A stretch of DNA of 64,000 bases from an uncultured bacterium (GCA_913009335.1 CAJVXN010000002.1:11981-75980); one strand, 5' to 3'. Shown: positions 614-35,429, counted from the stretch's first letter. Notes: a model not told the origin generated them from the sequence alone. Numbers and translations: made by a program.

Positions 614-1525
614 TTAACTCTTTGTAATTAAGCTATTTATGTTTTTACCCAGTATTTTATCTTTATCAACTTCCTCTATATTAAGGCTTTTGACTGTATC
701 GATGGATGCGTTAATATTTATGTTGGCTGGATAGTCTGAACCCCAGAGTATTCTATCCTGTGAGAAGAATTCAAGCGCGAGGTTAAATAATGAGGCTGAT
801 TTTACTCCACTGGTATCTACATATACATTGCTTAAGATATCGGTTGGGTTTTTACCTAAATCTTTTACAAATCCCCTGCTACGTAACATGTGATATGTGG
901 AATCAAATCTATCTTTTAAAAATGGTGTTACGCCCGCAAAATGCGCAAAAACGAATTTGACATTAGGGAATTTCCTAAAGGTTCCGGACATCATCATTTT
1001 CCCCAGGCACATTGTTATATCAAACAAAAATTCTATTACCGGCATAAGCAGTGGATCTTTTACCCGCTCAAAACCAATAGGGTTTGATATTTGCGAGTGT
1101 ACGAAAACAGGAAGATTTAAGTTTTCTGCTTCCTTATATATAGGGTGAAACGCCTCTTCGTCTAAGAATTTACCTTCAAAACTTGATGCAAGCGATATTG
1201 CGTCTAATCCCAGGTCTTTAATATGCGCAAGTTCGTTAATCATTGCGTCATTATTATCTATGGGTAAGATGCCTGCTGTAATGAAGCGGCCGGGGTGATT
1301 TTTGCTAGTCTTTGCGATTTCCTCGTTGTAGATAGCACTTACTTTGTCTCTTCCTCTCATATTTAGATGCGCATCACTTGTGGGATATAGGAGAACGGAT
1401 TTTTCAATGCCTGCCTCATCCATTGCCTTAAGCTGCGCGGTAATATCTGACCAGCGTACCTTAAAGAAGGTGGTGTTTTGCGCAATTTTATTAGGAAGCC
1501 AATGTGAATGACTATCAATAATCAT
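614..1525 (-). CDS. amidohydrolase family 2 (ACMSD-like metal-dependent hydrolase)
   Basis: N-terminal MIIDSHSHW motif and overall TIM-barrel amidohydrolase_2-like sequence. Confidence 0.6.
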   Translation of the reverse strand: MIIDSHSHWLPNKIAQNTTFFKVRWSDITAQLKAMDEAGIEKSVLLYPTSDAHLNMRGRDKVSAIYNEEIAKTSKNHPGRFITAGILPIDNNDAMINELAHIKDLGLDAISLASSFEGKFLDEEAFHPIYKEAENLNLPVFVHSQISNPIGFERVKDPLLMPVIEFLFDITMCLGKMMMSGTFRKFPNVKFVFAHFAGVTPFLKDRFDSTYHMLRSRGFVKDLGKNPTDILSNVYVDTSGVKSASLFNLALEFFSQDRILWGSDYPANININASIDTVKSLNIEEVDKDKILGKNINSLITKS

Positions 1526-1552
1526 TAGTGTCCCCTTATCTTTATTATTCTC

Positions 1553-2164
1553 CTACTGGGTCTTAATTAGTTCTACATTATCAACGTAAAATGTGCCTTT
1601 AGCCTTAGCAATAGGCTCAAACTGATAGCTTTTGACAGGAAAGTCTATTATTCCGTTTACATCAGCTGTTGCCGGCTGCCAGTCACTTCTTGCGAAAAAG
1701 TCCTTTAGGGGACAAACGATTTGTTTCCAACCACTAAAGTCGTCCGTAAATATAAATCGCCACATCTCGTCCGTATTATCTTTAATGTCTATGGAAACCC
1801 TTGTTTTTGAATTACTCCCGTATATATAGAATGAAAAAGCATCGAAATTATTCCATTTTATCTTTGTGTGTTTAACCAGCCAGCTTGAATTTTTAGCATC
1901 TAGTTCGAATCCTCTGGCAATCCACATATATCCCCCGCCTATCGCGTCATAGGCAATCTTAAGTGATTGATTCCCTTGATATTTTATATCTTTGCTTGCT
2001 GTAACATCAACTGATGAGCCTTCTCCTGAGCCAAAATCAACGGTGCCTTTAGCTCCTCCGGATATTTCTCCTTCAAAATCATCAATTAATAAAGATTTAT
2101 TTTGAGCGCAGGAACTAATCCCTACGCATAATATAAGTACTAAAATTAAATTTACCGCTTTCAT
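1553..2164 (-). CDS. secreted lipoprotein, unknown function
   Basis: Signal peptide plus lipobox (LCVGISSC), 203 aa. Confidence 0.5.
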   Translation of the reverse strand: MKAVNLILVLILCVGISSCAQNKSLLIDDFEGEISGGAKGTVDFGSGEGSSVDVTASKDIKYQGNQSLKIAYDAIGGGYMWIARGFELDAKNSSWLVKHTKIKWNNFDAFSFYIYGSNSKTRVSIDIKDNTDEMWRFIFTDDFSGWKQIVCPLKDFFARSDWQPATADVNGIIDFPVKSYQFEPIAKAKGTFYVDNVELIKTQ

Positions 2165-2210
2165 CTGTCTTAACTCCTTTCAGTATATTATAAAATTATT
2201 AATAGTTGAG

Positions 2211-2990
2211 TTATTTATCCGGGTGAGCTTGCTTAAACGGTATTACGGGTTTTGTCCATGGAGTTTGTTGATTAATTACCGATATCTCCAACGGGCAGAC
2301 ATTTGCCGGTACATTTAAGGCAAATATAATGGCATCTTCTATCGCCTTTGTCGTCATGAGCCGTGATGTGTCTCCGGTTATTTCTTTTAATTTTCCTGTA
2401 AGGTCAGTATCTGTTACGCCGGGAAGAATCGAGGTTACTTTTATTCCGTGATCGCGCATTTCCCAGAAAAGCCCTTTGCAGAACGCGCGTAATCCAACTT
2501 TTAGCGAGCTGTAAACAATAAAGTTACGCGGTAAGGGGTCACACAGGGTTGAGCCTGAAACCATATTGATAATCGCGCCCGATTTATTCGCTATCATATC
2601 GTTTATTACAAGGCGGATTAGACGTACGTATCCAAGATAGTTCGTATGGGCAAGCCTTTCAAAATCCTCGATAGGTTGTTTCTCAAACGGCGATTGACTG
2701 GATACGCCGGCGTTATTGATTAGAATATCAAGCTTTCCGTATTTTTTTTTGGTTTTATTATATAGATTTTCAAGATCAGCTAATTTTGTAACATCGGTTC
2801 TCACGGCGAGTACCTCTACCTTATGAGTTTTTCTTATTTCATCCGCTGTTTGATTAAGCGGTCCTTCGCTACGTGCCGCAAGAGTTAAGTTTATTCCTTC
2901 ACGGGCAAGTGCTATAGCTATTGCTTTACCTATACCTCTGCTTGATCCTGTTATGATTGCGCTTTTGCCTTTTAAATCGCTCATATTCAC
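2211..2990 (-). CDS. SDR family oxidoreductase (ketoreductase-like, FabG/ActKR-like)
   Basis: Cofactor motif TGSSRGIGKAIA and NNAG; SDR length. Confidence 0.7.
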   Translation of the reverse strand: MNMSDLKGKSAIITGSSRGIGKAIAIALAREGINLTLAARSEGPLNQTADEIRKTHKVEVLAVRTDVTKLADLENLYNKTKKKYGKLDILINNAGVSSQSPFEKQPIEDFERLAHTNYLGYVRLIRLVINDMIANKSGAIINMVSGSTLCDPLPRNFIVYSSLKVGLRAFCKGLFWEMRDHGIKVTSILPGVTDTDLTGKLKEITGDTSRLMTTKAIEDAIIFALNVPANVCPLEISVINQQTPWTKPVIPFKQAHPDK

Positions 2991-4114
2991 CCCTCTATTT
3001 TTAATAATTTTTTTGATGATAGTGATAAAATTAATAAGGCTACTCCCACGCCTATAAAAGTAAATGCGAAACTTTTCTGCATCATAAATCCTCCCAGGGC
3101 AGCCCCTACCCCGCCTGCTAAGAAACGCACCGAACTGTTTAAGCTGGCAATTTCCTGTGTATATAATTTTGGCAGGTCCGTTAGATAGGTTGAGAGGCCC
3201 GAATGATTAATTGTCCAGCCTAATCCCCAAGCAAACATAATCAGCCCAATGAACAATATTTTATTAGTAATGGATAAAGAAATAAGCGCTATTCCCATAA
3301 TCAGCGCTCCGGCTGAAAGAGTAACCAGGCGTCCTTTTTTATCGGAAGATATCCCTCCGAAGAATTCCCCAAAAATACCGGCAAAGCTTACTAATGTAAG
3401 CAGCATGCTGATGGTAAATTTCGAAAATTCATGCTCAATATGGAAATATACTCCCATCCATTGGCGAACTAAATGATATAGCAGGCTTATAAAAAAGATA
3501 TAAATAAACACTCGCAGTATCTTTTGGTTTTTAAATGCCTGGATGTATCTTGATTTATGCCCGTCAGTTTCGATATTGACTTTTTCAAATAGCAGTAAAA
3601 CTAAAATTGCTGTGACAGCGGCAAGCATCGCCGGAATGAGGAATATAAATCGCCACTTAATTATTCCGGTTAAAAATAATCCGCATAGTGAAGATATAAA
3701 CGTGATACTAAAAAATGTTCCTACGGCCTTCCCTCGATTTTTAGCCTCAAAGGTATGCGAGATGTAAATTAAAGCTAGAGGTATTACAGCTGAGGCAAAA
3801 ATACCAGACATGATGCGGAAAATAAATAGGCTGTTTAACCCTCCAGCAACAGATGAGAAAAAGCTAAATACCGAAAATAGACTTAAGACTACAACTAAAA
3901 TATGCTTTATATCGACTCTGCGCGATAGCGGGCCATAAAAAAGAGCGCATGCCCCATAGGGTATCATATAGGCCCAGATGATTCTACCTGCCGCAAAATC
4001 TGATACATCCATTGTTTTTGCAACGGATGGTATAAGTGCCGATATTGCGGCAACATTAAAAGAAATAATAGTTCCTAGTAGGCAAAAAATCCAGTAGTTG
4101 GTTTTTCTAAGCAT
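2987..4114 (-). CDS. MFS transporter
   Basis: About 12 predicted TM helices, 375 aa, MFS-like charge motifs. Confidence 0.6.
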   Translation of the reverse strand: MLRKTNYWIFCLLGTIISFNVAAISALIPSVAKTMDVSDFAAGRIIWAYMIPYGACALFYGPLSRRVDIKHILVVVLSLFSVFSFFSSVAGGLNSLFIFRIMSGIFASAVIPLALIYISHTFEAKNRGKAVGTFFSITFISSLCGLFLTGIIKWRFIFLIPAMLAAVTAILVLLLFEKVNIETDGHKSRYIQAFKNQKILRVFIYIFFISLLYHLVRQWMGVYFHIEHEFSKFTISMLLTLVSFAGIFGEFFGGISSDKKGRLVTLSAGALIMGIALISLSITNKILFIGLIMFAWGLGWTINHSGLSTYLTDLPKLYTQEIASLNSSVRFLAGGVGAALGGFMMQKSFAFTFIGVGVALLILSLSSKKLLKIEG

Positions 4115-4117
4115 TTA

Positions 4118-4239
4118 CCCCGTTAGAGATAGGTCGTCTTTAGACGACCGTCTATCTATCGTAAAATTAGTTGATAAAGCTTGCGTTTCTATAATTGTTA
4201 ATCCCGTTTGATATGCCTTAGGCGTTATCTCTAACGGGG
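4118..4239 (+). repeat. TIR-bounded intergenic repeat element, copy 1 (CCCCGTTAGAGATAGG-hairpin GGTCGTC/GACGACC ... TATCTCTAACGGGG)
   Basis: 14-bp terminal inverted repeats and an internal hairpin read directly. The left end lies 4 nt upstream of the MFS start codon. The right TIR encodes the last 7 codons and the stop of the SRPBCC gene. Confidence 0.8.
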
Positions 4240-4685
4240 TTTACCTTCGCGTTCGCCTCTTTTTCTATTATGTCTTTAAAGATCTTTAGGTTTTCCTGTG
4301 AATGTTTATTTATAAATCCTTCTACCTGCTTGTCATTGTATTTGGCTTTTTTGTCCATGGTGAAGTGTTGTATCCATGTCATGATTACACCGTCGTTAAC
4401 GGGGGTGTAGAGCCAGATGATTTTCATGTATTCAAACGGAAATTTTGGGTCTTTTTTTTCAGCGTAGGCTAGATGATTATCACGAAATAGCAGGCGAAAT
4501 GATTGCCAGGAGTTTCCTTCGTCGTCTGTTAGGCGAAAAGTAAGCTTATTCCCCTCTTTTTTTAAAATCGCGGCCTCTTTATATTCTGAGCCAAATAGTT
4601 CCGTCCATCGGGGAATATCGTTTGAAATATCAAATATTGTTTCATAAGGCGCGTTAATCAATATGGAATTGCTTGTGTGTCCCAT
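4218..4685 (-). CDS. SRPBCC / polyketide cyclase-aromatase-like protein (Polyketide_cyc2-like)
   Basis: 155 aa with an N-terminal pattern typical of the Bet v1-like polyketide cyclase family. The C-terminal 7 codons derive from the repeat element. Confidence 0.55.
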   Translation of the reverse strand: MGHTSNSILINAPYETIFDISNDIPRWTELFGSEYKEAAILKKEGNKLTFRLTDDEGNSWQSFRLLFRDNHLAYAEKKDPKFPFEYMKIIWLYTPVNDGVIMTWIQHFTMDKKAKYNDKQVEGFINKHSQENLKIFKDIIEKEANAKVNPVRDNA

Positions 4686-4723
4686 GTTTTCTCCCTTCGG
4701 TCGAAAAGTTTACAGTTAACAGT

Positions 4724-5521
4724 TTACAAAGTTGCTATCACTCTTGCCCAGGCAGCGCCGGTTTTACGAATTTTTACCGGGAGACAATGCACTTTAAATC
4801 CGTGATCAGGTAATTTATGCAGGCCGCCTAATCTTTCGATATGTATAAATTCTCGCTTTCTTCCGTAAAAATGCGCCGGCCAAAGTACGCTGGGGTCGTT
4901 ATTCTTCATAAATTCCTTTATCATGAATTGATACGGCCTGTCTATTCCCATAGTATCAACACCGAAAATTTTAATACCATTATCTAAAAGATAGTCGATT
5001 GCCGATATATCTACTGCCGGATAATCGGAAAAATAATCTTTACTGCCGAATAGCTTATCCCTTCCGGTAAAAAGCAAAACAATATCCAGCGGCTTTAGCC
5101 GGTAATTTATTCTTTTTAATTCGTCCTGGACGTCTTTCTTTGTGATTGTTTCCCCTGATTTTTTATGGTAGAAGTTAAGCCGCACACCATCTGAGATGCA
5201 CCATTCTAAAGGAATTTGATCAGATGTCTTCGATGCTCTTCCTTCGGATTTGCTTCCGTAATGATAGGAGTAATCAAGGTGGGTTCCAATGTGTACCGGT
5301 GAATGTACCACTTCAAGAGATAGGAATTCTTCATCGGGTAGGTCGTTCTTTTTTATAATGCGTTTACCCAGTAGATACTTTATTTTTCCGGATAAACTTT
5401 TACAAAGTAGGACCTTGTTTAGTTTTTCAATACCGTCTTTATGAGATACGCGGGTGATATGCATATCGTGTACTTCAAAGGCTGTATCGTCAATTGCAAG
5501 GCTTAAGTCTATAATTTTCAT
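4724..5521 (-). CDS. cyclase-family protein (PF04199-like putative cyclase / kynurenine formamidase-like)
   Basis: HIGTHLD metal-binding motif characteristic of the cyclase family. Confidence 0.55.
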   Translation of the reverse strand: MKIIDLSLAIDDTAFEVHDMHITRVSHKDGIEKLNKVLLCKSLSGKIKYLLGKRIIKKNDLPDEEFLSLEVVHSPVHIGTHLDYSYHYGSKSEGRASKTSDQIPLEWCISDGVRLNFYHKKSGETITKKDVQDELKRINYRLKPLDIVLLFTGRDKLFGSKDYFSDYPAVDISAIDYLLDNGIKIFGVDTMGIDRPYQFMIKEFMKNNDPSVLWPAHFYGRKREFIHIERLGGLHKLPDHGFKVHCLPVKIRKTGAAWARVIATL

Positions 5522-5764
5522 TTAGCTAAGCTTTGATCGTATGATGCTGACAATTTCATTGATTGAGTTAAGCTTTGTTACTTCCTTTGCGGATATCTGG
5601 GTATCAAAAGCTTTAGAAAGGGCAATTACAACCTCCACCATTTCTGTTGAATCTACTCCCAGACTATCGTATAGTTTTCCCTCTGGTTTTAGCTCTTCGG
5701 GTTTAACCCCCAGACTTTTAACTATAGTATCGTTTATTTTTTGTTGTATTTCGGCTGTTTCCAT
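5522..5764 (-). CDS. acyl carrier protein
   Basis: 80 aa with the LGVDSTE phosphopantetheine-attachment motif. Confidence 0.8.
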   Translation of the reverse strand: METAEIQQKINDTIVKSLGVKPEELKPEGKLYDSLGVDSTEMVEVVIALSKAFDTQISAKEVTKLNSINEIVSIIRSKLS

Positions 5765-5794
5765 ATTGTACCCCTTTTTTCCTATAATTATCGT

Positions 5795-5833
5795 ATAACT
5801 TTACATTTCCACCTTGTTAAAATGTAAAGTTAT
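5795..5833. other. intercistronic hairpin (ATAACTTTACATTT ... AAATGTAAAGTTAT) between the rSAM stop and the ACP start; same family as 560-600
   Basis: 14-bp inverted repeat with a 12-nt loop, read directly. Confidence 0.55.
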
Positions 5834-5858
5834 TTTAATTATCCTCTATTTTCCAATA

Positions 5859-7319
5859 TTAAATATGCACTTCTCCCTTTGTTGCTCCTGCCTCCCATTT
5901 GTCTACACCGCGCATTACATCCTTAAAGCAAAGCTTTGCCAGTTCGTCAAAATCGCTTTCCAGGATTCTATGGATTCTTCCCGGTTTTGAAAAGAATTCG
6001 CGCATACACCATGAACCGAGTTCGCCCAATTGCTGTATTGAGAGGTGATTTGTCGGCATGACAGGATGCAGAAAATCCCATTTTAGGAAATCAATTTTTT
6101 CAGGCTCAATCCAGTTTTTCTTCATGCCCATTCTCCACATTGGAGAATTTGGAGAGGGTGTTACATAGCCTATCCATAAGATATCAGGGTCGACTTGATC
6201 GGTAAATTCGTATCTTTGTTTTATGATCTGTTCATTGTCGTCTTCAAAACCCATCATTATATCGGCAACAACTGCGATATTGTGCTTGCGTAGTATATCG
6301 ATTGTCTTTTTAATTTGATCAATAGTGATTCCCTTGGCTATTTTTTTCAATTCCTCGGGGGTGGTTACTTCAATACCGAATACACCGGTAAAAAGTCCTG
6401 TTTCTTTCATTAGCGGCAGTATGGGTTCGCAGTTTATCCAGTCGATTGCCCTTCCTAATGATACCCATTTAATGGGATTGTTGTGCGCTTTTTTCAGTTC
6501 ACAGAATTTACGCACTCTTTCAGGATTAGTATTAAAATTATCGTCCTGAAGAACTACTACCTGTACGCCATATTTTTTATGTAAGAGATCAAATTCTTCC
6601 ATTACGCGCTCAGGTGATTTTGCCCGCCATTTTAAGAAGTCTGAAGGGCTCCTGGGGTCATATTGGTCCCATTCATAGCAGAATGTACATGCTGAAGGGC
6701 ATCCGCGGGATGTAACCATATCTACAAATGGTTTCCAGTGTGTATGTCCGACGTATTTATCCATGGGGAATAAATCGTACGCGGGAAGCGGGAGTTTGTC
6801 TAGGTCCATGTTAAGCGGTCTATATGGCCCCATTACAGCTTTGCCATCTACTCTTGCAGCAACTCCGGCTACCTTTGATATATCTTTGTTTTTATCGATT
6901 GCGGCAATCAGGTCGCCGAATGCTTCCTCTTCCGACATAACTATGTAATCAACTGCCGGGTTGGCGTCCAATGTCTGTGTGGGCATTGCTGAATACCACA
7001 GGCCTCCTAATATTATTTTTACCTTAGGCAGAGTTGCTTTTATTTGTTTGGCTGCTTTATTGAAATGCGCAACTACCGCATAACCTCCGTAGGAATGAAG
7101 CTGTTCACCCATAACTATTAAATCAGGATTTTTCTCTTTTATTTTTTCGAGCATTTCATCCATTTCGATTTCGAGGGCCTTGCAGTCTAGAACTTCTAGA
7201 TCTTCATATCCGTTTTCTCTGATAAATGCTGCCCAGTGCGCGTATAATTGATTAGGCGAAACATGTTTTCCGTGTGTTGCCCATGAACCTACTTTTGGCA
7301 TAACAAATAAAATCTTCAT
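5859..7319 (-). CDS. B12-binding radical SAM protein (class B radical SAM, methyltransferase-like)
   Basis: N-terminal B12-binding-like domain plus the CxxxCxxC motif (TSRGCPSACTFC). Confidence 0.7.
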   Translation of the reverse strand: MKILFVMPKVGSWATHGKHVSPNQLYAHWAAFIRENGYEDLEVLDCKALEIEMDEMLEKIKEKNPDLIVMGEQLHSYGGYAVVAHFNKAAKQIKATLPKVKIILGGLWYSAMPTQTLDANPAVDYIVMSEEEAFGDLIAAIDKNKDISKVAGVAARVDGKAVMGPYRPLNMDLDKLPLPAYDLFPMDKYVGHTHWKPFVDMVTSRGCPSACTFCYEWDQYDPRSPSDFLKWRAKSPERVMEEFDLLHKKYGVQVVVLQDDNFNTNPERVRKFCELKKAHNNPIKWVSLGRAIDWINCEPILPLMKETGLFTGVFGIEVTTPEELKKIAKGITIDQIKKTIDILRKHNIAVVADIMMGFEDDNEQIIKQRYEFTDQVDPDILWIGYVTPSPNSPMWRMGMKKNWIEPEKIDFLKWDFLHPVMPTNHLSIQQLGELGSWCMREFFSKPGRIHRILESDFDELAKLCFKDVMRGVDKWEAGATKGEVHI

Positions 7320-7333
7320 TTTTCTTCCTCCTT

Positions 7334-8566
7334 TTATTTATTCTTTTCGATTATCAGCGCTGAATTTATCCCGCCTCTACCGCGCGAGATTATAAGCGCC
7401 TTATTTATTTTATGCTCACTTGCCTCTTTTTTAATGTAATTTAATCCGTCAGGATCAGGATTATCTAGATTTATCGTTGGGGGAATTAAGCTGTTTTGCA
7501 TTGCCAGTATTGTAATGATTAAGTCTATCGCTCCGGAAGCGCCCAGTAAATTCCCAAACATCGATTTTGGACAACTAGCAGGTATGTCTTTTGATCTTTT
7601 ACCAAATACTTCTTTTATTGCCGCGGTCTCACCTTTATCCCAAATATCAATTGCCAAACCATCCAGGCTTATGTAATCTATGTCTTTTGGATTTGCTTTC
7701 GCGTTAATTAAAGCTGTTTTTATTGCTCTGGCAAGTTGAACTCCTTTGGCATCAGGGGTAATTCTGTTTTGTCCGTCACAATTTGAGGCATATCCTGATA
7801 TTACAGCGTTTATATCAGCGCCTCTTTTTGTAGCGCGCGCGAGGCTTTCTAAGACCATTATTCCTGCGCCTTCGCCGATTACGAAGCCGGATTTTTCTTT
7901 ATCAAATGGCCTATAAGCGCCTGGAGGGTTTTGATTGTTTTCGGATAGCCCGCCATAAGTGTTGCAGCACAAAAGAGCATAGGGTGTAACAGGCGCCTCC
8001 ATGCCTCCGGCAAGTATCATATTCAGCTTGCCTTTACTTAAGGTTTTATTTGCGTATCCTATTGCTTCAAGAGAACTTGCTCTATCAGCAACGATAGTTT
8101 TAGAGAATCCCTTTATGCCGTAATATATAGATACTTGTCCTTGCGGAGCTGCCGGAAACCAGGCTGATGCCATATAGGGTGATACACCATCACGGCCCTC
8201 AATATACATATCTCTTAATTCTGTTTCCGCGTATAACCATCCGCCTAACGCATTGCCCAGGAATATTCCTACAAGATTAGGGTCCTCTTTGGCTATGTCA
8301 ATTCCCGCATCTTTTAAAGCAAGCTCTGAAGCGATTAGCGCCATATGCGAAAAAGCATCTATTTTTTTAAGTAGTCGCTCGGAAACATGTGAATATTTTT
8401 CAAGTTCCTCGATTTGTCCGGCAATATGTGACGGGTACTTTGAACTATCAAAGCGCGTGATTTCTTTAACAAAAGATCTCCCTGCTTTAATATTTGCCCA
8501 GAATTGTCTTTTGCCTATGCCGCTTGGGGCAACTACTCCTAATCCCGTAATTGCGATTTTTTCCAT
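7334..8566 (-). CDS. beta-ketoacyl synthase-like protein lacking the catalytic Cys and His residues (chain-length-factor / KS-beta-like partner)
   Basis: KS fold (GLGVVAPSGIG N-terminus). Aligned against the adjacent KS, Cys becomes Arg (IVADRASS) and both His are lost (ISLDG, MFGNLLGAS). Confidence 0.6.
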   Translation of the reverse strand: MEKIAITGLGVVAPSGIGKRQFWANIKAGRSFVKEITRFDSSKYPSHIAGQIEELEKYSHVSERLLKKIDAFSHMALIASELALKDAGIDIAKEDPNLVGIFLGNALGGWLYAETELRDMYIEGRDGVSPYMASAWFPAAPQGQVSIYYGIKGFSKTIVADRASSLEAIGYANKTLSKGKLNMILAGGMEAPVTPYALLCCNTYGGLSENNQNPPGAYRPFDKEKSGFVIGEGAGIMVLESLARATKRGADINAVISGYASNCDGQNRITPDAKGVQLARAIKTALINAKANPKDIDYISLDGLAIDIWDKGETAAIKEVFGKRSKDIPASCPKSMFGNLLGASGAIDLIITILAMQNSLIPPTINLDNPDPDGLNYIKKEASEHKINKALIISRGRGGINSALIIEKNK

Positions 8567-8571
8567 ATTTA

Positions 8572-8695
8572 CCCCGTTAGAGATAGGTCATCTTTAGATG
8601 ACCGTATGTTAAACTAAACTTATTAAACTAAACTTGTTTTTTTATAATTATCTGTTTTCCCGTTATCAATGATGGTGTTGGTATCTCTAACGGGG
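8572..8695 (+). repeat. TIR-bounded intergenic repeat element, copy 2 (hairpin GGTCATC/GATGACC)
   Basis: Same TIRs as copy 1. The hairpin carries compensatory substitutions. It lies 6 nt upstream of the KS-beta-like start codon. Confidence 0.8.
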
Positions 8696-8707
8696 TTTAA
8701 TTCCTTG

Positions 8708-9967
8708 TTATTCAAATCTCCTTAGCACTAAAGATGAATGTACTCCGGAGAATCCGCTACTTGTTTTTAATATTGTATTTACCTTTTGTTTTCGGGCAAC
8801 GTTCGCGATATAGTCAAGGTCGCACTTTGGATCGCGTTCATCCTGGTTTATCGTCGGCGGCAGGATATTATTTTGGAATATCATGGCGCAAATTACAAGC
8901 TCTATTGCGTTTGCCGCGGCCAATGGATGGCCGATCATTGATTTTAGTGAACTAGAAGGTATCTTGTAGGCATAATCACCGAATACCATCTTATAAGCAT
9001 CGGTTTCAAATACGTCGTTCATGCGTGTGGAAGAGCCATGAGCGTTGATATGATCTACTTCAGTGGGTTTTATCCCTGAATCTTTTAATGCTAAATTTAT
9101 GCAGTTTGCCATGGACGTGCCGTCACCCGGCAAGTCTGTCATATGAAACGCATTGCAGCTTGTACCAAATCCTAAAATCTCCGCGTAGATAGGCGCGCTT
9201 CTTTTTTTAGCGTGATCTAATTCTTCCAGGATTAGAATGCCCGCGCCTTCGGATAAAACAAAGCCATCGCGTTTGTTGTCAAATGGACGGCTGGCAGCTT
9301 CGGGGTTATCATTTTTAACAGATAAAACATTTACTACATCAAAGGCCCCGAATGTTATAGGTGTAATGGGTGCCTCGGATGCTCCGGCAATCATTATATC
9401 TGCTTCGTTATCCTGTATCAATTCTAAGGCGTATCCTAATGAGTCTGTTCCGGCTGTACATCCTGTTGAAATGGTGTTACATACACCTTTTAATCCGTAT
9501 TTTGCCGAGAGTTCTATTGAAGGGGTATTAAACATAGATGCGTCATAAAGATCTGGCCGTACCTTGGATGGGTCAATTGGATTCTTGCCATTGTCGGTAA
9601 CCATGGCAAATTCCTCTTCCATGTATTTTGTGCCGCATATCGCATTGGCAAGAGATACTCCTATGCGTTCAGGGTTCTCTTTTGGGAAATCAAGAGCGGA
9701 ATCCTCGATGGCCATCTTAGCTGATGCAACAGCAAACTGAACGTATCTATCCATACGCATTACGTCTTCATGTGTTAGTCCTAATTTAAACGGATCAAAA
9801 TCACGCGCTTCAGCAGCAATCTTGGTATTAAAAATCGATACATCAAAACCGTCTACTAATTTTACGGCTGATTTTCCCGATATGAATGCCTGGTATGCGT
9901 TATCTTTTCCTATGCCATTTGGGGAGATAACCCCAATTCCAGTTATAACTACGCGTCGTTTCTTCAT
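8708..9967 (-). CDS. beta-ketoacyl-ACP synthase (FabF / KS-alpha-like, catalytically complete)
   Basis: Active-site STGCTAG, INAHGSST and MIGHPLAAAN motifs are present. Confidence 0.75.
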   Translation of the reverse strand: MKKRRVVITGIGVISPNGIGKDNAYQAFISGKSAVKLVDGFDVSIFNTKIAAEARDFDPFKLGLTHEDVMRMDRYVQFAVASAKMAIEDSALDFPKENPERIGVSLANAICGTKYMEEEFAMVTDNGKNPIDPSKVRPDLYDASMFNTPSIELSAKYGLKGVCNTISTGCTAGTDSLGYALELIQDNEADIMIAGASEAPITPITFGAFDVVNVLSVKNDNPEAASRPFDNKRDGFVLSEGAGILILEELDHAKKRSAPIYAEILGFGTSCNAFHMTDLPGDGTSMANCINLALKDSGIKPTEVDHINAHGSSTRMNDVFETDAYKMVFGDYAYKIPSSSLKSMIGHPLAAANAIELVICAMIFQNNILPPTINQDERDPKCDLDYIANVARKQKVNTILKTSSGFSGVHSSLVLRRFE

Positions 9968-10014
9968 AATTATTCAGTAACCCTATATGTTTTTCCAAAA
10001 ATATAAATATAAAG

Positions 10015-10617
10015 TTATTTTTTATCCTCCTCTACCCTCGTTACTTTCATTATGATGTTTCCGCCGTCCGGGCATGTTACGGTATCAATTGAGTCCGGAT
10101 TATCCATAAAGGAAAACTTTGCTCCGAAATTAAGCGCAAAAAGCGCCGGGAACGCGGTATGAAATGCCGCTCCGCAAAATCCGGGGATACACTTAAGTCC
10201 GGTTGTCTCCCATTTATCTCCCATTTTATACCCAAAGTGACATTTACCTTTAGCCTTTACTATCTCAATTACCATCTTTTTTGGTTTTGGGCCCTTATGG
10301 TTCGGGTCCTTGGGGATATTTTGTATTTTATCGCTGTCCTTCTCGAATATTTCCGCTTTAAATTCAAGCTTTCCGCCGTCCGGGCATGTTACAAGTAATG
10401 AGCGTTGATTATCCCGAAATGGAAACTTTGCTCCGAAACTTAAAGCATAGATTACGGGAAATAATACGTGCGCAAGCCCCAAGCAAAAATACTTTGGCGG
10501 ATGGGTAAAATCTTCTAGGATTAATTCATCACCTTTTTTATACCCGTGGTAGCAGTGCCCGTAGACATTTTCAACGGTGAGTTTTAATCTGGGAAATGGC
10601 GTATCAGGCTTTGACAT
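10015..10617 (-). CDS. tandem-duplicated TIGR04076-like domain protein
   Basis: Two ~95-aa repeats, each with a GxCxHGYKxGD ... FGAKFxFxDN ... VTCPDGG pattern. Confidence 0.4.
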   Translation of the reverse strand: MSKPDTPFPRLKLTVENVYGHCYHGYKKGDELILEDFTHPPKYFCLGLAHVLFPVIYALSFGAKFPFRDNQRSLLVTCPDGGKLEFKAEIFEKDSDKIQNIPKDPNHKGPKPKKMVIEIVKAKGKCHFGYKMGDKWETTGLKCIPGFCGAAFHTAFPALFALNFGAKFSFMDNPDSIDTVTCPDGGNIIMKVTRVEEDKK

Positions 10618-10625
10618 AAGATCTC

Positions 10626-11633
10626 CTAATTATTAATAAATTCTTTCGTTTCTTTAATTAATTCTTTTTTCGTGAAAAATCGTTTTGTATCTTCGACTTC
10701 ATAGACCATGGCAATTAGTTTGTCGTTTAGGCCGGCGGATAAGTTATTTGCCTTGGCTAGTCTTACAAATTCTCCGTTTATGTAATTGATTTCTGATTTT
10801 CGGTTTCTTTTTATGCTTTGTAGTATTGAGCCGTATAGGGGTTCTTTGCTTAGATTGGACATAATTTGCGAATATGTTTTTGCTGCATTACGTAGTGGTA
10901 TGGATGTGAGTTTGGTTACGCGCTCAACAGGAAAATCAGGTAGTGAAACTAGCTTCACATTTGCCGTTTCTACGATATTCAGCCCTTCTTTCCAGATGCT
11001 TATCGCTATAGCGCTGATATCGATATTGCGAAAGGCCTCCTGCATGCTGATGCCTAGTATTGCCGCAATGCAGTTATTTGCATTTACGAATATTTTCAAG
11101 TATTTCATTGCTTTGATATCATCGCTTATTACTACGTTAAATGCGTCATTGATTGTTTTCTTTATATCATCTATGTCTTTATCGGCTTTTGTTCCAAGTT
11201 TACCGATTATCCAGCTTCCTTCAAAGTTGTGTACTATCTTACCGGAATATAGGCAAGTTGCCCCAAACATTACAATGCTGGATATGATATTATCTTCTGG
11301 TATGTAGTCGGCCACAATATTGTCCGTTTCCACACCGTTTTGAGTAGTCATGATAAGAGAGTTTTTAATAAAATCAAAATTATCTTTTATTGCGGATTCG
11401 ATATCCTGGGTTTTAGTAGTAAGTATCACTAAATCCGGCTGATATATTAATTTTTCATGCGCCTCAATTTTTATATTTAGCTTTCCTTTTACGCCGGAAA
11501 TAATAAGGCCCTCTTGATTTATTCTACCAACCGATTCTTTACGTGCGGCTAGAGTTACATCACTCCCATTTAATTTTAGATATCCGGCAACAAGTCCACC
11601 GATAGCACCCGCGCCGATTACTGTAATTTTCAC
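10626..11633 (-). CDS. 2-dehydropantoate 2-reductase family (ApbA/PanE-like) oxidoreductase
   Basis: N-terminal Rossmann motif MKITVIGAGAIGG and KPR-family length. Confidence 0.55.
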   Translation of the reverse strand: MKITVIGAGAIGGLVAGYLKLNGSDVTLAARKESVGRINQEGLIISGVKGKLNIKIEAHEKLIYQPDLVILTTKTQDIESAIKDNFDFIKNSLIMTTQNGVETDNIVADYIPEDNIISSIVMFGATCLYSGKIVHNFEGSWIIGKLGTKADKDIDDIKKTINDAFNVVISDDIKAMKYLKIFVNANNCIAAILGISMQEAFRNIDISAIAISIWKEGLNIVETANVKLVSLPDFPVERVTKLTSIPLRNAAKTYSQIMSNLSKEPLYGSILQSIKRNRKSEINYINGEFVRLAKANNLSAGLNDKLIAMVYEVEDTKRFFTKKELIKETKEFINN

Positions 11634-11643
11634 GCATTACTCC

Positions 11644-11901
11644 TTATTTACCAAATCCATATTTTTTATAATCAAATCCGCTTTTTTCAAGCAGCCGGAC
11701 CATCATGCTATAGAAAGGCGAGGGTACATCAGAAAAAAACGCGTTAATTATATCTTCTTCATCTACTTCCCCTGCTTTGCGCGCTAGAGCATTTTCTTCG
11801 GCTTTTTTGGTTACGACACTTTCTGTAATTCTGCGATGAAAAACAGGAATTTTTTCAATCATGGATTTAAACTTTGCCTCAACCTCATTGTTCCATTTCA
11901 T
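11644..11901 (-). CDS. PCP_red-like domain protein (protochlorophyllide-reductase C-terminal-like small domain)
   Basis: Pattern W..EAE..F....IP.F.RR.....KAEE.A...G characteristic of the small PCP_red domain. Confidence 0.4.
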   Translation of the reverse strand: MKWNNEVEAKFKSMIEKIPVFHRRITESVVTKKAEENALARKAGEVDEEDIINAFFSDVPSPFYSMMVRLLEKSGFDYKKYGFGK

Positions 11902-11921
11902 TCTTTTTGCTCCTTATACGA

Positions 11922-12131
11922 TTAAAAATATCTAATGACTTCTAGCGGCTTTAATAATTGATTGATAAGAGTATTTTCTTTTTTACCTTTTTGGTATTTT
12001 TCTAAAGATATCTCGCTGCGGTAGAAGTGCCGTTTTAATTCTGTCGCATTGCCTGGCAGCATCTTGTTTGCTTTATAGATATAGATAGATATGTAAATAA
12101 TAAATAAAACCAGAAGTATTTTCTTTAGCAT
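11922..12131 (-). CDS. small membrane protein, hypothetical
   Basis: 69 aa with one N-terminal TM helix. Supported only by the ORF and gene spacing. Confidence 0.3.
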   Translation of the reverse strand: MLKKILLVLFIIYISIYIYKANKMLPGNATELKRHFYRSEISLEKYQKGKKENTLINQLLKPLEVIRYF

Positions 12132-12151
12132 TTTTATTCCTCCTCATTAAC

Positions 12152-13633
12152 TTATGCAAACCAAGAAGTAACCAAAGATTTACCTGTCGGGTTTAGATCG
12201 ATGTTTACATGTTTGGTCTCTGTGTATTCCAGAAGCCCTTCCTTACCTAGCTCGCGTCCGATGCCGCTTTCTTTGTATCCGCCGAATGGCGCTTCATTAT
12301 AGAAACCGCCGAAGGTATTAATCCATACTGTGCCGGAGAGCATTTGCTTAGCTATTCGGTTTGCGCGGTTTAAGTTTTTTGTCCAGACCATGCTTGCTAA
12401 TCCAAATCTGGTATCATTGGCGATTGCTATTGCATCTTGTTCTTTTGTGAATTTAATTATTGATAGTACGGGGCCGAAAATTTCTTCTTGGGCAATACGC
12501 ATGTTGTTTGTAACATTTGCAAATATTGTCGGCTCAAGATAAAATCCTTTTTCTAATTCTCTATCTTCAGGGATATTCCCGCCGTAAAGAAGCTTTGCCT
12601 CTTTTTTACCTATTTCTATGTAATTAATAATAGATTTTCTGTGTTCTTTTGATATGATTGGCCCAAAATCCGTATCAGAGGCAAGGGCATTTCCGATTTT
12701 TAACTTTTTGGTTTTATCAAGCAGCAGTTCTACAAATTTATCGTATATTTTATCTTCCAGGATAAGCCGTGAACCGGCAACGCACATCTGTCCCTGATTC
12801 ATGAATATTGCGCTCATCGCTCCCCCGACTGCTGCTTCTAAGTCGCAATCGGCAAATACTATGTTGGGGCTTTTACCGCCTAATTCCAGGCATACCTTTT
12901 TGGTGTTTTCTGAGGCGAGCTTCATAACCTCGCGACCGGCTGCATTTCCTCCTGTGAAAGAAATCATATTTACTAGTTTGTTTTTTGAAAGTGTCCTGCC
13001 TACTTCATCGCCTTTGCCAGTTACGATATTTACTACTCCCTGCGGTAATTCTATTCTTTCGAATATCTTGGCTAATTCCAGGCATGTTAAGGATGCAAGT
13101 TGTGAGGGTTTAAAGATAACGCTATTTCCCATTATAATAGCGGGGGCAATTTTCCATGCAGCCATTAGCAGTGGGTAGTTCCAGGGTATGATTTGACCTA
13201 TTACGCCTATTGGCTCACGTAATGTGAAGCTAAAGGCCGGATTGTGTATAGGTATGGTTTCACCTTTAATACTTGTCCCAGCAGCTGCGAAATATTCAAA
13301 AGCCGATGCCGCTGTCGGGATATCAATAAAAGTTGTCTGCTTTGTGGTTTTTCCGGTATCTTTTGATTCAAGATTCGCTAAATTATATGCCTCTTCTCTG
13401 ATTATTTGCGCGATTTTGTATAAGTACTGGGCACGTTCAGCAATGGGCATTTTAGGCCACTCGCCCGTATCAAAAGCCTTCCTTGCTGAGCCAATAGCAG
13501 TTTCAGTATCAAGGGTTGTTGCTTGTGGATATGCCGCGATGGTCTCGTTTGTTGAGGGGTTGATGCTTTCTATTTTCTTTTTATTGCTGCTGTCTACCCA
13601 TTTACCATCGATGTACATCTTATATTCATTCAT
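12152..13633 (-). CDS. NAD(P)-dependent aldehyde dehydrogenase
   Basis: ELGGKSP and catalytic-Cys (QGQMCVAGSR) motifs. The start is reassigned to ATG at 13633 (MNEYKMYIDGKWV, with GGAG RBS), because the longer ORF runs into the tandem repeat. Confidence 0.8.
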   Translation of the reverse strand: MNEYKMYIDGKWVDSSNKKKIESINPSTNETIAAYPQATTLDTETAIGSARKAFDTGEWPKMPIAERAQYLYKIAQIIREEAYNLANLESKDTGKTTKQTTFIDIPTAASAFEYFAAAGTSIKGETIPIHNPAFSFTLREPIGVIGQIIPWNYPLLMAAWKIAPAIIMGNSVIFKPSQLASLTCLELAKIFERIELPQGVVNIVTGKGDEVGRTLSKNKLVNMISFTGGNAAGREVMKLASENTKKVCLELGGKSPNIVFADCDLEAAVGGAMSAIFMNQGQMCVAGSRLILEDKIYDKFVELLLDKTKKLKIGNALASDTDFGPIISKEHRKSIINYIEIGKKEAKLLYGGNIPEDRELEKGFYLEPTIFANVTNNMRIAQEEIFGPVLSIIKFTKEQDAIAIANDTRFGLASMVWTKNLNRANRIAKQMLSGTVWINTFGGFYNEAPFGGYKESGIGRELGKEGLLEYTETKHVNIDLNPTGKSLVTSWFA

Positions 13634-13667
13634 CTTATTCTCCGTAACTTCAGATTTTATATTAACC

Positions 13668-13690
13668 TTTGTACACCTACGAGGTGTACA
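13668..13690. promoter_or_regulatory. perfect 9-bp palindrome TGTACACCT-acg-AGGTGTACA, 35-55 nt upstream of the ALDH start (candidate operator)
   Basis: Read directly; position relative to the RBS and start codon. Confidence 0.4.
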
Positions 13691-13696
13691 TGGTTT

Positions 13697-14054
13697 ATTC
13701 AGCACATTCTCCTAAGCAAACTAAGACCATCTTCGATGATTTTAGTTTAGGAATCAGTACTAATTCGGAAGTATAACTTATATCGCTCTTTGAGCTCTAT
13801 AAGTTATGTCCTCATTCAGCACATTCTTCTAAGCAAACTAAGACCATCTTCGATGATTTTAGTTTAGGAATCAGTACTAATTCGGAAGTATAACTTATAT
13901 CGCTCTTTGAGCTCTATAAGTTATGTCCTCATTCAGCACATTCTCCTAAGCAAACTAAGACCATCTTCGATGATTTTAGTTTAGGAATCAGTACTAATTC
14001 GGAAGTATAACTTATATCGCTCTTTGAGCTCTATAAGTTATGTCCTCATTCAGC
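13697..14054. repeat. tandem repeat, 3.06 units of 117 bp, >95% identical; each unit carries two hairpins (AAACTAA...TTAGTTT and ATAACTTATA...TATAAGTTAT)
   Basis: Unit starts at 13697, 13814, 13931 and 14048, read directly. The last partial unit overlaps the stop region of the 14046-15044 gene. Confidence 0.85.
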
Positions 14055-15044
14055 CGGGGCTAACTTCCAAAGGTCAAATATGCGGTTAAACGGCGCATAC
14101 CACCGGGACAGTTTTGCCATATCCCCTTTTAATTTAAGCTTGCGTTGTGTTGTGGCCGCAAACGGGTCCAATTTCCTGCTAAAAACAAGTCTCCAGTAGA
14201 CTATGGATCCGGATATTACAAACTCTGCCGTTTCGTCATTGGTTACTTTATCAATGTTTCCTTTATTAAAATGAAAGTTATATACCTTATTTTCTTCATC
14301 TACCTTTATAGCGAGTCTAGTAGTTAAGTCCAGGCTCTTCCCTTTTTCTTTTATCTGGCTATCGTTATTAACCAGGCTTACGATTTTATCAATATGCTCT
14401 TTTGAGAAAAGTTTGTATTTTTTTAATTCTTCACTGGGGTCATCTGTTTTCGGTAAATCTACTTTGTCCTTTTGTGGATTTGATTGTAAGGCAATATTTA
14501 CCTTGCAGGTTTCATCCAGCATTTGGGTTAAAGAAAATGCCTGCTTGAAGTCTGAGCCTATTGATACAATACCGTGTCTTTTAAGGACAACAATGTTACT
14601 GGTTTCCAGGGCTTTTAATACGGGCTTGACGTTAGTTACTATGGGCCCGTCTTGCTCAAGTGCGGTTATATTGGAGAGATAAAGGCGCGCTTCAAAGTTA
14701 TTAATTTCTAAATTTTTAAAATTAGAATAAAACGCGGTAGTAAACGCGGGATGCGCGTGTATTACCGCGTTGACCTCTTCAAATTTATACGCGCCTAAGT
14801 GAAGGGCTAGTTCGCTTGTGGGTTTAGAGTCGTTTTTATCTAAAACATTTCCTGATTTATCGATTAAAACTATTTCATCCTCTTCCAGGTATCCTAAGTA
14901 GGCATTATGGGTAGTGACTAAAAATTTATCTTTATCTACCCTTACGGATATATTACCTACCGGGCCACAGACAAAGGATCTGTTGGCTAGTTCTTTGGCC
15001 CAGAATAGTATCTCATCTCGTTTATCTTTGTATAGGGTTTTCAT
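14046..15044 (-). CDS. class II aldolase/adducin-family protein (MtnB-like) fused to a C-terminal SCP2-like domain
   Basis: HAHP metal-binding motif (VIHAHPAFTTAF). C-terminal KLKLKGDM...L pattern typical of SCP2. Confidence 0.5.
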   Translation of the reverse strand: MKTLYKDKRDEILFWAKELANRSFVCGPVGNISVRVDKDKFLVTTHNAYLGYLEEDEIVLIDKSGNVLDKNDSKPTSELALHLGAYKFEEVNAVIHAHPAFTTAFYSNFKNLEINNFEARLYLSNITALEQDGPIVTNVKPVLKALETSNIVVLKRHGIVSIGSDFKQAFSLTQMLDETCKVNIALQSNPQKDKVDLPKTDDPSEELKKYKLFSKEHIDKIVSLVNNDSQIKEKGKSLDLTTRLAIKVDEENKVYNFHFNKGNIDKVTNDETAEFVISGSIVYWRLVFSRKLDPFAATTQRKLKLKGDMAKLSRWYAPFNRIFDLWKLAPAE

Positions 15045-15436: not shown

Positions 15437-15462
15437 TCCGTATATTAGTGTGTAAGTTTTTA

Positions 15463-15587: not shown

Positions 15588-15594
15588 TTAAGTT

Positions 15595-17336: not shown

Positions 17337-17340
17337 TTTA

Positions 17341-31705: not shown

Positions 31706-31718
31706 TTACTCTCTCCTT

Positions 31719-32684: not shown

Positions 32685-32728
32685 GTTTCCTCCTTAGGGT
32701 CATAATAATTATTATTTTAGACTCTTCC

Positions 32729-35418: not shown

Positions 35419-35429
35419 TTTTAATTTTG

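Follow-up and report, generated by a model that had tools for sequence, protein, structure and literature searches.

The sequence analysed here, hereafter the window, is a stretch of 64,000 nucleotides from an uncultured bacterium (GCA_913009335.1, CAJVXN010000002.1:11981-75980). On its minus strand, the gene of a complete ketosynthase (KS) is followed by those of a catalytically dead KS partner, a B12-binding radical S-adenosylmethionine (SAM) enzyme, an acyl carrier protein (ACP) and two cyclase-like proteins. The question raised by this locus is whether these genes encode a polyketide synthase (PKS) of type II, a specialised pathway of the fatty-acid type, or housekeeping ketosynthases accompanied by unrelated neighbours. 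The results favour the first answer: the cluster is probably a functional type II PKS operon making an aromatic polyketide and, by its sequence, is assigned to the clostrubin-like, non-actinobacterial clade of the type II PKSs. The product would most likely be an aromatic (phenolic) polyketide made without need of oxygen. A type II PKS had been proposed in the initial annotation of the window, and this proposal is supported by the affinities of the KS and of its partner, the chain-length factor (CLF), by the TcmN-type and PF04199 cyclases, by the ACP and by the presence of the same core in Clostridium beijerinckii. Four lines of evidence, each independent of the others, lead to this assignment: the resemblance of the KS to solved KS-alpha structures, the relatives of the dead KS, the matches of the SRPBCC protein and those of the Amidohydro_2 protein.

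Domains were called by Pfam and NCBIfam profile scans of the window proteins against curated cutoffs. The genes on which the assignment mainly rests are given below in the order of transcription.

8708-9967, minus strand: KS-alpha, active ketosynthase (Cys170/His310/His347)
7334-8566, minus strand: CLF (KS-beta), catalytically dead (Arg162/Asp302/Asn339)
5859-7319, minus strand: class B (B12-binding) radical SAM enzyme, BchE/HpnJ-like (PF02310, PF04055, CX3CX2C)
5522-5764, minus strand: ACP (PF00550, Ser39)
4724-5521, minus strand: PF04199 (OxyN-type) cyclase (HxGTHxDxxxH)
4218-4685, minus strand: TcmN/WhiE-type mono-domain aromatase/cyclase of the SRPBCC fold (Pfam and PDB matches)
614-1525, minus strand: ACMSD-family (Amidohydro_2) metal-dependent decarboxylase (HxH...H...H...D ligands)

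A residue check of the KS revealed Cys170, His310 and His347 in place, and the partner has Arg162, Asp302 and Asn339 at these positions, exactly as first described (Cys replaced by Arg and both His lost). When the KS was compared with the PDB, the actinorhodin KS-alpha (1tqy_A) scored 383.6 bits and Photorhabdus AntD 367, whereas no FabF structure scored above 358. Alignments highlighted a segment of 5 residues in the KS, the actinorhodin KS-alpha and AntD at a place where FabF has a gap, and a HGSSTxxND motif common to the same three proteins where FabF has HGTSTPAGD. In a neighbour-joining (NJ) tree, the KS grouped with the actinorhodin KS-alpha, AntD and the KS of the C. beijerinckii clostrubin locus (L005; related loci are cited by such numbers), and the dead KS grouped with the CLFs of C. 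beijerinckii, Ktedonobacter and Archangium, both clades having 100% bootstrap. With 461 bits for the KS and 374 for the dead KS, both proteins are below the cutoff (493.75) of the FabF equivalog TIGR03150; with 449 bits, the KS exceeds the cutoff (387) of PRK07314, a FabF subfamily model of NCBIfam. By bit scores and tree placement, the pair thus stands apart from ordinary FabF/FabB paralogues, and this candidate was rejected.

The nearest relatives of the dead KS outside Omnitrophota, obtained by a search of 1.84 billion representatives followed by exact look-up, include the CLFs of C. beijerinckii/C. puniceum, Ktedonobacter and Archangium. Identity between the dead KS and the clostridial CLF (P0134), regarded here as ClrB of the clostrubin PKS, is 44-46%. 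A 'DRAS' motif, with Arg for Cys, is present in most of the nearest CLF-like representatives, those of C. beijerinckii, Ktedonobacter and Archangium included. No exact copy of the window CLF was found in the contig collection.

The proteins encoded downstream are compatible with aromatic polyketide synthesis. The ACP carries a DST motif with Ser39. The sole PDB matches of the SRPBCC protein are the TcmN and WhiE aromatase/cyclases (87 bits, E ~1e-23), and among the pocket residues of TcmN, as reportedly listed by Ames et al. in 2008, W28, F32, E34, Y35, W65, S67, R69, M91, W95, W108, Q110 and N136 are kept, the one change being R82 to K. By these matches and residues the protein is a TcmN/WhiE aromatase/cyclase and not a generic Bet v1 protein, in agreement with the fold first proposed. 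The PF04199 cyclase (90.6 bits) has an intact metal motif; kynurenine formamidase was rejected for it, as the arylformamidase model gave 23 bits versus a cutoff of 223 and PDB matches were negligible. The Amidohydro_2 protein, in which the metal ligands are present, matches ACMSD and the 5-carboxyvanillate (LigW), gamma-resorcylate, 2,3-dihydroxybenzoate and salicylate decarboxylases, and its sequence fits an enzyme that decarboxylates an aromatic acid. Pfam scans of the window proteins revealed neither a dehydratase nor an enoyl reductase, and none was found in the conserved operon.

The closest known systems are the clostrubin cluster (clr) of C. beijerinckii/C. puniceum and the 'ancestral' non-actinobacterial dendrubin (den), AQ-256 (ant) and Ktedonobacter minimal PKSs. 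In the C. beijerinckii locus, the same KS-CLF-cyclase-SRPBCC-Amidohydro_2-ACP core is found; in both systems the KS-alpha gene precedes that of an Arg-type CLF, the ACP is discrete and the host is an anaerobe, and the PF04199 cyclases are 43%, the TcmN-type proteins 41% and the Amidohydro_2 proteins 34% identical. The Omnitrophota operon differs from clr by a B12-radical SAM gene inserted between those of the CLF and the ACP, by ApbA, duplicated TIGR04076 and DUF2621 genes upstream, and by an SDR gene and a phosphorylase/isomerase/aldolase-SCP2 module. It is devoid of the clostridial PPTase, CMD, DUF362, DUF169, FrsA-like and KS-III genes, and it occurs in at least 80 species genomes instead of sporadically. 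The window core (KS-alpha, dead CLF, discrete ACP, TcmN/WhiE-type and PF04199 cyclases) corresponds to the KS-CLF-ACP-TcmN-OxyN arrangement, the ancestral type II PKS architecture according to Hillenmeyer and Hertweck, the clostrubin PKS being itself discussed as ancestral (PMC7693217). With the tetracenomycin and WhiE spore pigment systems, the window shares a mono-domain aromatase/cyclase of the type that acts on unreduced chains, whose only solved relatives are TcmN and WhiE and whose pocket is kept; it differs from them by low identity, another host phylum, the absence of an O-methyltransferase fusion and of oxygenases, and Arg versus Gln in the CLF.

Related clusters were also found in other lineages. 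In a metagenome-assembled genome (MAG) labelled Deltaproteobacteria (L003, CLF 58% identical), the locus comprises radical SAM, ApbA, duplicated TIGR04076, KS, CLF, ACP, cyclase, SRPBCC, MFS and Amidohydro_2 genes, together with a PNP-type phosphorylase, two IF-2B, an aldolase/SCP2, two aldehyde:ferredoxin oxidoreductase (AFOR) and an amine-oxidase-like gene. In a third lineage (L087/L088), ApbA and two small proteins at the position of TIGR04076 are accompanied by KS, CLF, ACP, cyclase, SRPBCC and Amidohydro_2, with an AFOR gene just upstream of the cluster in L088. In L003 and L087 too, it is ApbA that stands immediately upstream of the position of TIGR04076, and homologues of the Amidohydro_2 protein are shared by L003, L005 and L087. 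The MMPL, LolA-like or MacB-type export genes present in related clusters of other Gram-negative lineages hint at an envelope-located product.

On the basis of its proteins, the host of the window is a member of Candidatus Omnitrophota. Proteins 72-100% identical to the dead KS, the radical SAM enzyme or the TIGR04076 protein come almost exclusively from MAGs labelled Candidatus Omnitrophica/Omnitrophota. The G+C content of the window is about 39%, and nearly all its genes lie on the minus strand. This host is placed in the part of the bacterial tree related to the Planctomycetes-Verrucomicrobia-Chlamydiae group, as are the anammox bacteria.

Every gene named in the initial annotation was recovered by the Pfam/NCBIfam scans, intact, on the minus strand and at its place, including the acyl-CoA ligase pointed out near the cluster at 17341 (17341-18840). 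The extent first given to the cluster, 2211-13633, is too small. Since the block from the AMP-forming ligase to the aldehyde dehydrogenase (Aldedh) lies upstream of the DUF2621 gene in the window and in L007-L009, the real unit should span about 614-18840, past both of these ends, with a PadR gene in addition. The other genes of the region, apart from those of this block, are as follows.

19554-20072, minus strand: PadR-family regulator (PF03551), usually the first gene upstream of the operon in Omnitrophota
18909-19541, minus strand: rhodanese (Pfam/NCBIfam scan)
11922-12131, minus strand: predicted membrane-anchored small protein of 69 residues (from the sequence)
11644-11901, minus strand: DUF2621 / weakly PCP_red-like small protein (Pfam)
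10626-11633, minus strand: ApbA/PanE-family NAD(P)H oxidoreductase (Pfam/NCBIfam)
10015-10617, minus strand: tandem-duplicated TIGR04076 protein (NCBIfam, two stretches, 94 bits)
2987-4114, minus strand: MFS transporter (Pfam)
2211-2990, minus strand: classical SDR oxidoreductase (Pfam/NCBIfam)
1553-2164, minus strand: CBM11-like predicted lipoprotein (signal peptide and lipobox)

The gene at 11644-11901, formerly described as encoding a PCP_red-domain protein, is indeed present; this label is weak (16.9 bits versus a cutoff of 32.5) and it is the DUF2621 model that passes (29.4 versus 27.7 bits). The CBM11-like protein has a signal peptide and the lipobox LILCVGISSC and is therefore a probable lipoprotein. 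An Rfam scan did not reveal any known RNA family inside the cluster.

The distribution of the operon was followed across the GTDB species, each represented by one genome. Relatives were present in at least 175 species genomes, and the best 80, with a CLF identity of at least 74%, were examined by tblastn of all window proteins against the related loci; occupancy was counted among 60 loci with upstream flank and 41 with enough flank. In these 80 genomes the operon is syntenic, on one strand and with short gaps, and one order is dominant: PadR, DUF2621, ApbA, duplicated TIGR04076, KS, CLF, radical SAM, ACP, cyclase, SRPBCC, (MFS), SDR, (CBM11), Amidohydro_2, PNP, IF-2B, aldolase/SCP2, (Aldedh) and (AMP-ligase). 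The cluster, at first regarded as unusual for such an organism, is no oddity of one genome and represents the norm in Omnitrophota. The KS, TIGR04076, ApbA and DUF2621 genes were found in 60/60 loci, and the radical SAM, ACP, cyclase, SRPBCC and SDR genes in 41/41, followed by Amidohydro_2 (40/41), PNP (39/41), IF-2B (36/41) and the aldolase (23/41, a count limited by the 10-kb flank); the MFS (30/41) and CBM11-like lipoprotein (26/41) genes are variable. The two aromatic cyclases and the aromatic-acid decarboxylase are kept in 40-41 of the 41 loci. PadR adjoins the cluster in 32 related loci.

Median identities to the window proteins are 80% for TIGR04076 and the SDR, 78% for the KS, 77% for the CLF and 76% for the radical SAM enzyme, then 66% for DUF2621, 57% for ApbA, 54% for the ACP, 53% for Amidohydro_2, 47% for the MFS transporter and 41% for both IF-2B and PadR. 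For the core genes compared with the three closest genomes, the nonsynonymous divergence (dN) is 0.08-0.14 and the synonymous divergence (dS) is saturated (at least 2.2 or undefined), indicating that the dead KS is strongly constrained by purifying selection. As dS is saturated even versus the closest relatives, the idea that the high identity stems from recent horizontal spread was rejected.

Some contigs carrying the operon at 74-79% CLF identity (L022, L031, L042, L046, L057, L058, L061, L062 and others) have labels foreign to Omnitrophota, namely Planctomycetales, Planctomycetia, Pseudomonadota, Patescibacteria and Thermodesulfobacteriota, and a 74% identical radical SAM protein (P0479) is encoded on a 3.3-Mb contig labelled Thermodesulfobacteriota. 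These contigs are either mislabelled or mis-binned Omnitrophota, or transfers. The operon occurs on two contigs of the MAG binchicken_co115_127 (L067 and L068), whose percent identities to the window agree gene by gene; this points to a duplicated region or a redundant bin. In L001 and L002, accA, coding for the carboxyltransferase alpha subunit of acetyl-CoA carboxylase, lies directly upstream of PadR, the latter abutting the operon in L001 and being located about 5 kb upstream of it in L002; through this placement, the operon may be tied to the supply of malonyl-CoA.

The radical SAM enzyme has its CX3CX2C motif at residues 207-214 and a B12-binding domain, and its best family match in NCBIfam, BchE, is sub-threshold. 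In two of the 80 loci (L034 and L042), no radical SAM gene was found between those of the CLF and the ACP, the KS-CLF-ACP-cyclase row being otherwise intact; these loci may be natural 'minus radical SAM' variants. The TIGR04076 protein has three invariant Cys and two invariant His in each repeat and is possibly, from this pattern, a metal or redox protein. In Bilophila, a TIGR04076 gene lies two genes from that of a glycyl-radical activating enzyme, and a redox-related role was suggested there (PMC8667426).

The block linked to the PKS genes in the window, which contains a phosphorylase, an isomerase and an aldolase, is composed of the following genes.

17341-18840, minus strand: AMP-forming acyl-CoA (or acyl-ACP) ligase, medium/long-chain or aryl type (PF00501 and PF13193)
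16587-17336, minus strand: divergent hexameric-type nucleoside phosphorylase (PNP_UDP_1, PF01048)
15595-16590, minus strand: MtnA-like (IF-2B family) sugar-1-phosphate isomerase (PF01008)
15041-15538, minus strand: short IF-2B-like protein (PF01008)
14046-15044, minus strand: class II aldolase fused to an SCP2 lipid-binding domain (PF00596 and PF02036)
12152-13705, minus strand: NAD(P)-dependent aldehyde dehydrogenase (PF00171, 598 bits), with a likely start at 13633, as in the gene call of the related contig L090

In the dihydroxyacetone phosphate (DHAP) shunt, a phosphorylase, the MtnA isomerase and a class II aldolase turn 5'-deoxyadenosine or methylthioadenosine (MTA) into DHAP and an aldehyde; this route was reportedly described by North et al. 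in 2020 and Beaudoin et al. in 2018. The window module has the same three families as the shunt (MtnP or Pfs+MtnK, MtnA, Ald2) in the same order, followed by an aldehyde dehydrogenase. It differs by the sub-cutoff scores of its proteins, by the SCP2 fusion of the aldolase, by an extra short IF-2B paralogue in some lineages and by being physically embedded in a PKS operon. All NCBIfam matches of the phosphorylase (Udp, DeoD, Pfs, HpnG) are below cutoff, with 96 versus 232 bits for DeoD; the isomerase gave 196-211 bits with MtnA models having cutoffs of 271-279, and the aldolase is below the cutoffs of the FucA and MtnB models (59 versus 137 bits for MtnB). The best NCBIfam match of the ligase, PRK06187 (438 bits), is also below cutoff. 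The SCP2 fusion, found in L003 too, and these low scores suggest a non-canonical substrate. Among the Omnitrophota loci, the short IF-2B-like gene is confined to L007-L009, and L003 has a counterpart of 148 residues.

The phosphorylase, isomerase and aldolase genes are linked to the PKS genes in 23-39 of the 41 loci, downstream in most lineages and upstream in the window and L007-L009; the aldolase follows PNP and IF-2B in 23 loci, Aldedh follows the aldolase in 9, and the ligase adjoins the cluster in 8, at three different positions. The phosphorylase, the two IF-2B and the aldolase/SCP2 genes also accompany the cluster in L003. As the linkage outlasts rearrangement and recurs in a lineage labelled as another phylum, a functional tie between module and PKS is likely. 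AFOR genes lie in or beside the clusters of L003 and L088 where Omnitrophota carry Aldedh, and AFOR may fill the aldehyde-oxidising role there. Most likely, to judge from these domains and their linkage, the module would be a dedicated clearance route resembling the DHAP shunt, in which the 5'-deoxyadenosine left by the radical SAM enzyme would be converted to DHAP and an aldehyde, the latter then to an acid and a thioester.

Other explanations of the cluster have been weighed. That it directs the synthesis of a specialised lipid of the fatty-acid type (ladderane-like, aryl polyene or another reduced chain), with the dead KS in the role of amxFabFmut and the radical SAM enzyme acting on the acyl chain, we hold to be very improbable. 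An active KS, a dead KS, a dedicated ACP and a radical SAM enzyme in an anaerobic host do recall 'Cluster I' of the anammox bacterium Kuenenia (amxFabF2/amxFabFmut, amxACP, amxFabZ, radical SAM), but where the window protein has Arg in place of Cys, the dead KS of the anammox bacteria has Val or Thr (bioRxiv 10.64898/2026.05.19.726425), and the conserved operon is throughout devoid of a FabZ/FabA dehydratase and of an enoyl reductase. A literature search for the PDB entry 9S5H, possibly the anammox heterodimer, gave no match. The radical SAM enzyme does match the ladderane model TIGR04072, with 77.5 bits, far under the cutoff of 360. Surveys of the antiSMASH type, such as that of the Cariaco Basin, reported 'ladderane' clusters in Omnitrophota MAGs (PMC9902471), and the aldolase bears a lipid-binding SCP2 domain; on the other side stand the grouping of the KS with aromatic KS-alpha and of the dead KS with clostrubin-type CLFs, and the two aromatic cyclases and aromatic-acid decarboxylase maintained across the loci. 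The alternative mentioned in the initial annotation, an aryl-polyene or ladderane pathway, was accordingly left without support: ladderane was rejected on the TIGR04072 score, the lack of FabZ and the Arg residue, and aryl polyene on the lack of dehydratases, the single ACP and the two aromatic cyclases. A quinone pathway was equally unsupported, the window containing no UbiA, UbiD, UbiX or Men/Mqn genes. Even less credible is that the two KS are housekeeping FabF paralogues beside an unrelated kynurenine formamidase and a Bet v1 protein. The KS passes PRK07314, and the operon is kept like a housekeeping locus, with accA close by in L001 and L002; yet the KS is under the FabF equivalog cutoff and scores higher with KS-alpha structures than with any FabF structure, the partner lacks all three catalytic residues and is nevertheless under strong purifying selection, the arylformamidase score is a tenth or so of its cutoff, the SRPBCC protein matches polyketide aromatase/cyclases alone, and no FabH, FabD, FabG, FabZ or FabI set accompanies the genes. 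This explanation is largely refuted.

With the PKS assignment taken as right, the module could instead be a general housekeeping salvage of SAM by-products (MTA, 5'-deoxyadenosine), a neighbour by descent without special tie to the PKS, which appears possible though rather unlikely. The domains of the trio are those of the DHAP shunt as published, its genes are far less conserved than the PKS core (medians of 40-57% versus 76-80%), and Aldedh and the ligase are associated with the cluster in as few as 8-9 loci. Against this, the adjacency persists whether the module is downstream, as in most lineages, or upstream, as in the window lineage, and it recurs in L003 with a CLF only 58% identical; all the genes share one strand and are separated by short gaps, the SCP2 fusion of the aldolase, like the sub-cutoff scores, suggests a substrate other than the canonical ones, and the AFOR genes of L003 and L088 may preserve the aldehyde oxidation by a non-homologous enzyme. 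A more speculative view, to which we give little credence, regards the polyketide as a core metabolite produced with no oxygen at any step, such as a quinone-like electron carrier or an envelope antioxidant, and the 5'-deoxyadenosyl group of SAM as a building block and not as waste. The radical SAM enzyme would then adenosylate an intermediate as HpnH and MqnE do, the divergent phosphorylase would remove adenine, the MtnA-like isomerase and the SCP2-fused aldolase would trim the ribose to a two-carbon aldehyde arm, and Aldedh (or AFOR) would oxidise this arm before its re-activation by the aryl/medium-chain CoA ligase, for example as a PKS starter. Such a view has room because the sub-cutoff enzymes, the SCP2 domain and the ligase type misfit simple recycling.

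Several observations weigh against the proposed type II PKS and its associated clearance route. The CLF has Arg and not the canonical Gln of actinobacterial CLFs at the Cys-equivalent position, which bears on chain initiation; as 'DRAS' occurs in most of the nearest CLFs, we regard this Arg as a trait of the non-actinobacterial clade and not as a disqualifier. The KS/CLF tree is small and distance-based, with two FabF outgroups and without aryl-polyene, polyene and ladderane KS, and, the 80 loci being the closest relatives, one clade of the phylum may be over-represented among them. As the radical SAM enzyme reaches none of the curated family cutoffs (BchE 211/481, HpnJ 145/578 bits), its chemistry is a guess. 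Phosphorylase, isomerase and aldolase all fall under the cutoffs of the canonical salvage enzymes, and recycling of 5'-deoxyadenosine to acetyl-CoA fits poorly, since the ligase is of the medium/long-chain or aryl type and not an acetyl-CoA synthetase. Finally, the SDR gave generic SDR and FabG matches alone and has no counterpart in the related clusters L003, L005 and L087; an ActIII-type C-9 ketoreductase is not supported, and the role of PKS ketoreductase first given to this generic classical SDR is not assignable.

In the type II PKS pathway that we propose, the KS/CLF heterodimer would condense malonyl-ACP, loaded by the housekeeping FabD, into an unreduced poly-beta-keto chain. The TcmN-like cyclase would close and aromatise the first ring and the PF04199 cyclase the later rings, after which the released aromatic acid would be decarboxylated by the ACMSD-type enzyme. 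The B12-radical SAM enzyme may catalyse a C-methylation independent of oxygen, or else an oxidation or cyclisation in the manner of BchE, and ApbA, the SDR and the Cys/His-rich TIGR04076 protein may contribute to electron transfer or to further redox tailoring. Transport of the product to the cell envelope or out of the cell would fall to the MFS transporter and the CBM11-like lipoprotein. Some regulators of the PadR family respond to phenolic acids, and the PadR gene weakly fits a phenolic product.

A repeated element interrupts this operon. Five copies of a sequence resembling a miniature inverted-repeat transposable element (MITE), of 122-125 bp and with perfect 14-bp terminal inverted repeats (TIRs), CCCCGTTAGAGATA...TATCTCTAACGGGG, were found in the window where 0 are expected by chance. 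Three of them, identified by repeat comparison, lie in the extended cluster.

15463-15587, minus strand: MITE-like repeat, 125 bp, 14-bp TIRs, between the two IF-2B genes
8572-8695, minus strand: MITE-like repeat between the KS and CLF genes
4118-4239, minus strand: MITE-like repeat between the SRPBCC and MFS genes

The last two are those placed inside the cluster at the outset, and the first is a third copy that comes with the larger extent. The remaining copies are at 27964-28087 and 37200-37323, with a solo end at 37328-37341 and a degenerate end at 57286-57299. All copies have the same orientation, are located in intergenic spacers of minus-strand operons and form an internal hairpin with compensatory changes between copies. 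Each ends 1-8 nt before a start codon or supplies a GGGG upstream of it; the last SRPBCC codons and the GGGG in front of the MFS start codon both come from the copy at 4118-4239. The listed starts of the open reading frames 15041-15538 and 26971-28041 are inside element copies and are probably wrong. For the short IF-2B gene, whose listed ATG is within the repeat, the true start is probably an ATG near 15436. The KS and CLF genes, separated by a copy in the window, abut in other Omnitrophota (L001, L002), and the element was not found in 89 related loci. In the related contig L090 (GCA_011051015.1, DRER01000055.1), which encodes a 100% identical TIGR04076 protein, the sequence ends within the KS gene (397/419 residues), before the KS-CLF repeat; evidently, the element fragments short-read assemblies of the cluster.

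Other features of the window were noted. The Wood-Ljungdahl corrinoid genes attributed to the same organism are present at 30917-36764 on the minus strand as a methyl-branch/corrinoid set comprising an AcsE-like pterin-binding protein, two CdhD-family subunits of the corrinoid iron-sulfur protein (CFeSP), a CooC-like ATPase and the corrinoid activator RACo, followed by an FmdE-like protein. A tRNA-Tyr(GTA) gene (21287-21618, minus strand; ARAGORN, introns allowed) has its anticodon loop split by a 247-nt group I intron, which Rfam locates at 21343-21593 (RF00028, 102.9 bits); the neighbouring thymidylate-synthase-like open reading frame (20406-21164) is full length and not split. A c-di-GMP-I riboswitch (74 bits) lies on the plus strand at 46202-46295, where nearby genes are nearly all on the minus strand.

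In the literature, a type II PKS catalogue of 2023 listed Candidatus Omnitrophica among 14 phyla with KS-CLF pairs, with no further description (PMC10132072), and neither polyketides nor radical SAM enzymes are mentioned in the main paper on Omnitrophota genomics (PMC10066038). No description was found there of the B12-radical SAM, ApbA, TIGR04076 and DUF2621 additions to a type II PKS, of the embedded salvage-like module, or of the operon's conservation in many species, its Arg-type CLF motif or its product.

Type II PKSs are known mostly from actinobacteria, in which they make optional antibiotics and pigments. The setting observed here is unusual, since the PKS is carried by small, streamlined genomes of an uncultured phylum in the same order in at least 80 species. 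It offers a compact natural example of the 'ancestral' KS-CLF-ACP-OxyN-TcmN type combined with a predicted oxygen-independent radical SAM tailoring, a pathway setting for the uncharacterised TIGR04076 and DUF2621 families, a rare case of putative 5'-deoxyadenosine-handling genes wired into a biosynthetic operon, and a well-defined candidate for heterologous expression from a phylum without cultured members. Should the deoxyadenosyl group serve as a building block, this would be a new way to feed a type II PKS and, for an entire clade within a phylum, the first instance of such a synthase supplying a primary metabolite. As the operon is intact and unusually conserved in at least 80 Omnitrophota species genomes, we infer a product with a core role, for instance an envelope-associated antioxidant, a pigment or a redox-active polyphenol, rather than an occasional antibiotic. 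Clostrubin reportedly helps its anaerobic producer to tolerate oxygen (Shabuer and co-workers, 2015), and by analogy the Omnitrophota product may protect anaerobes from oxygen or serve as a redox-active polyphenol. A dead subunit and a B12-radical SAM enzyme that are both about 77% identical while synonymous sites are saturated point to a physiological role of an aromatic polyketide in anaerobes.

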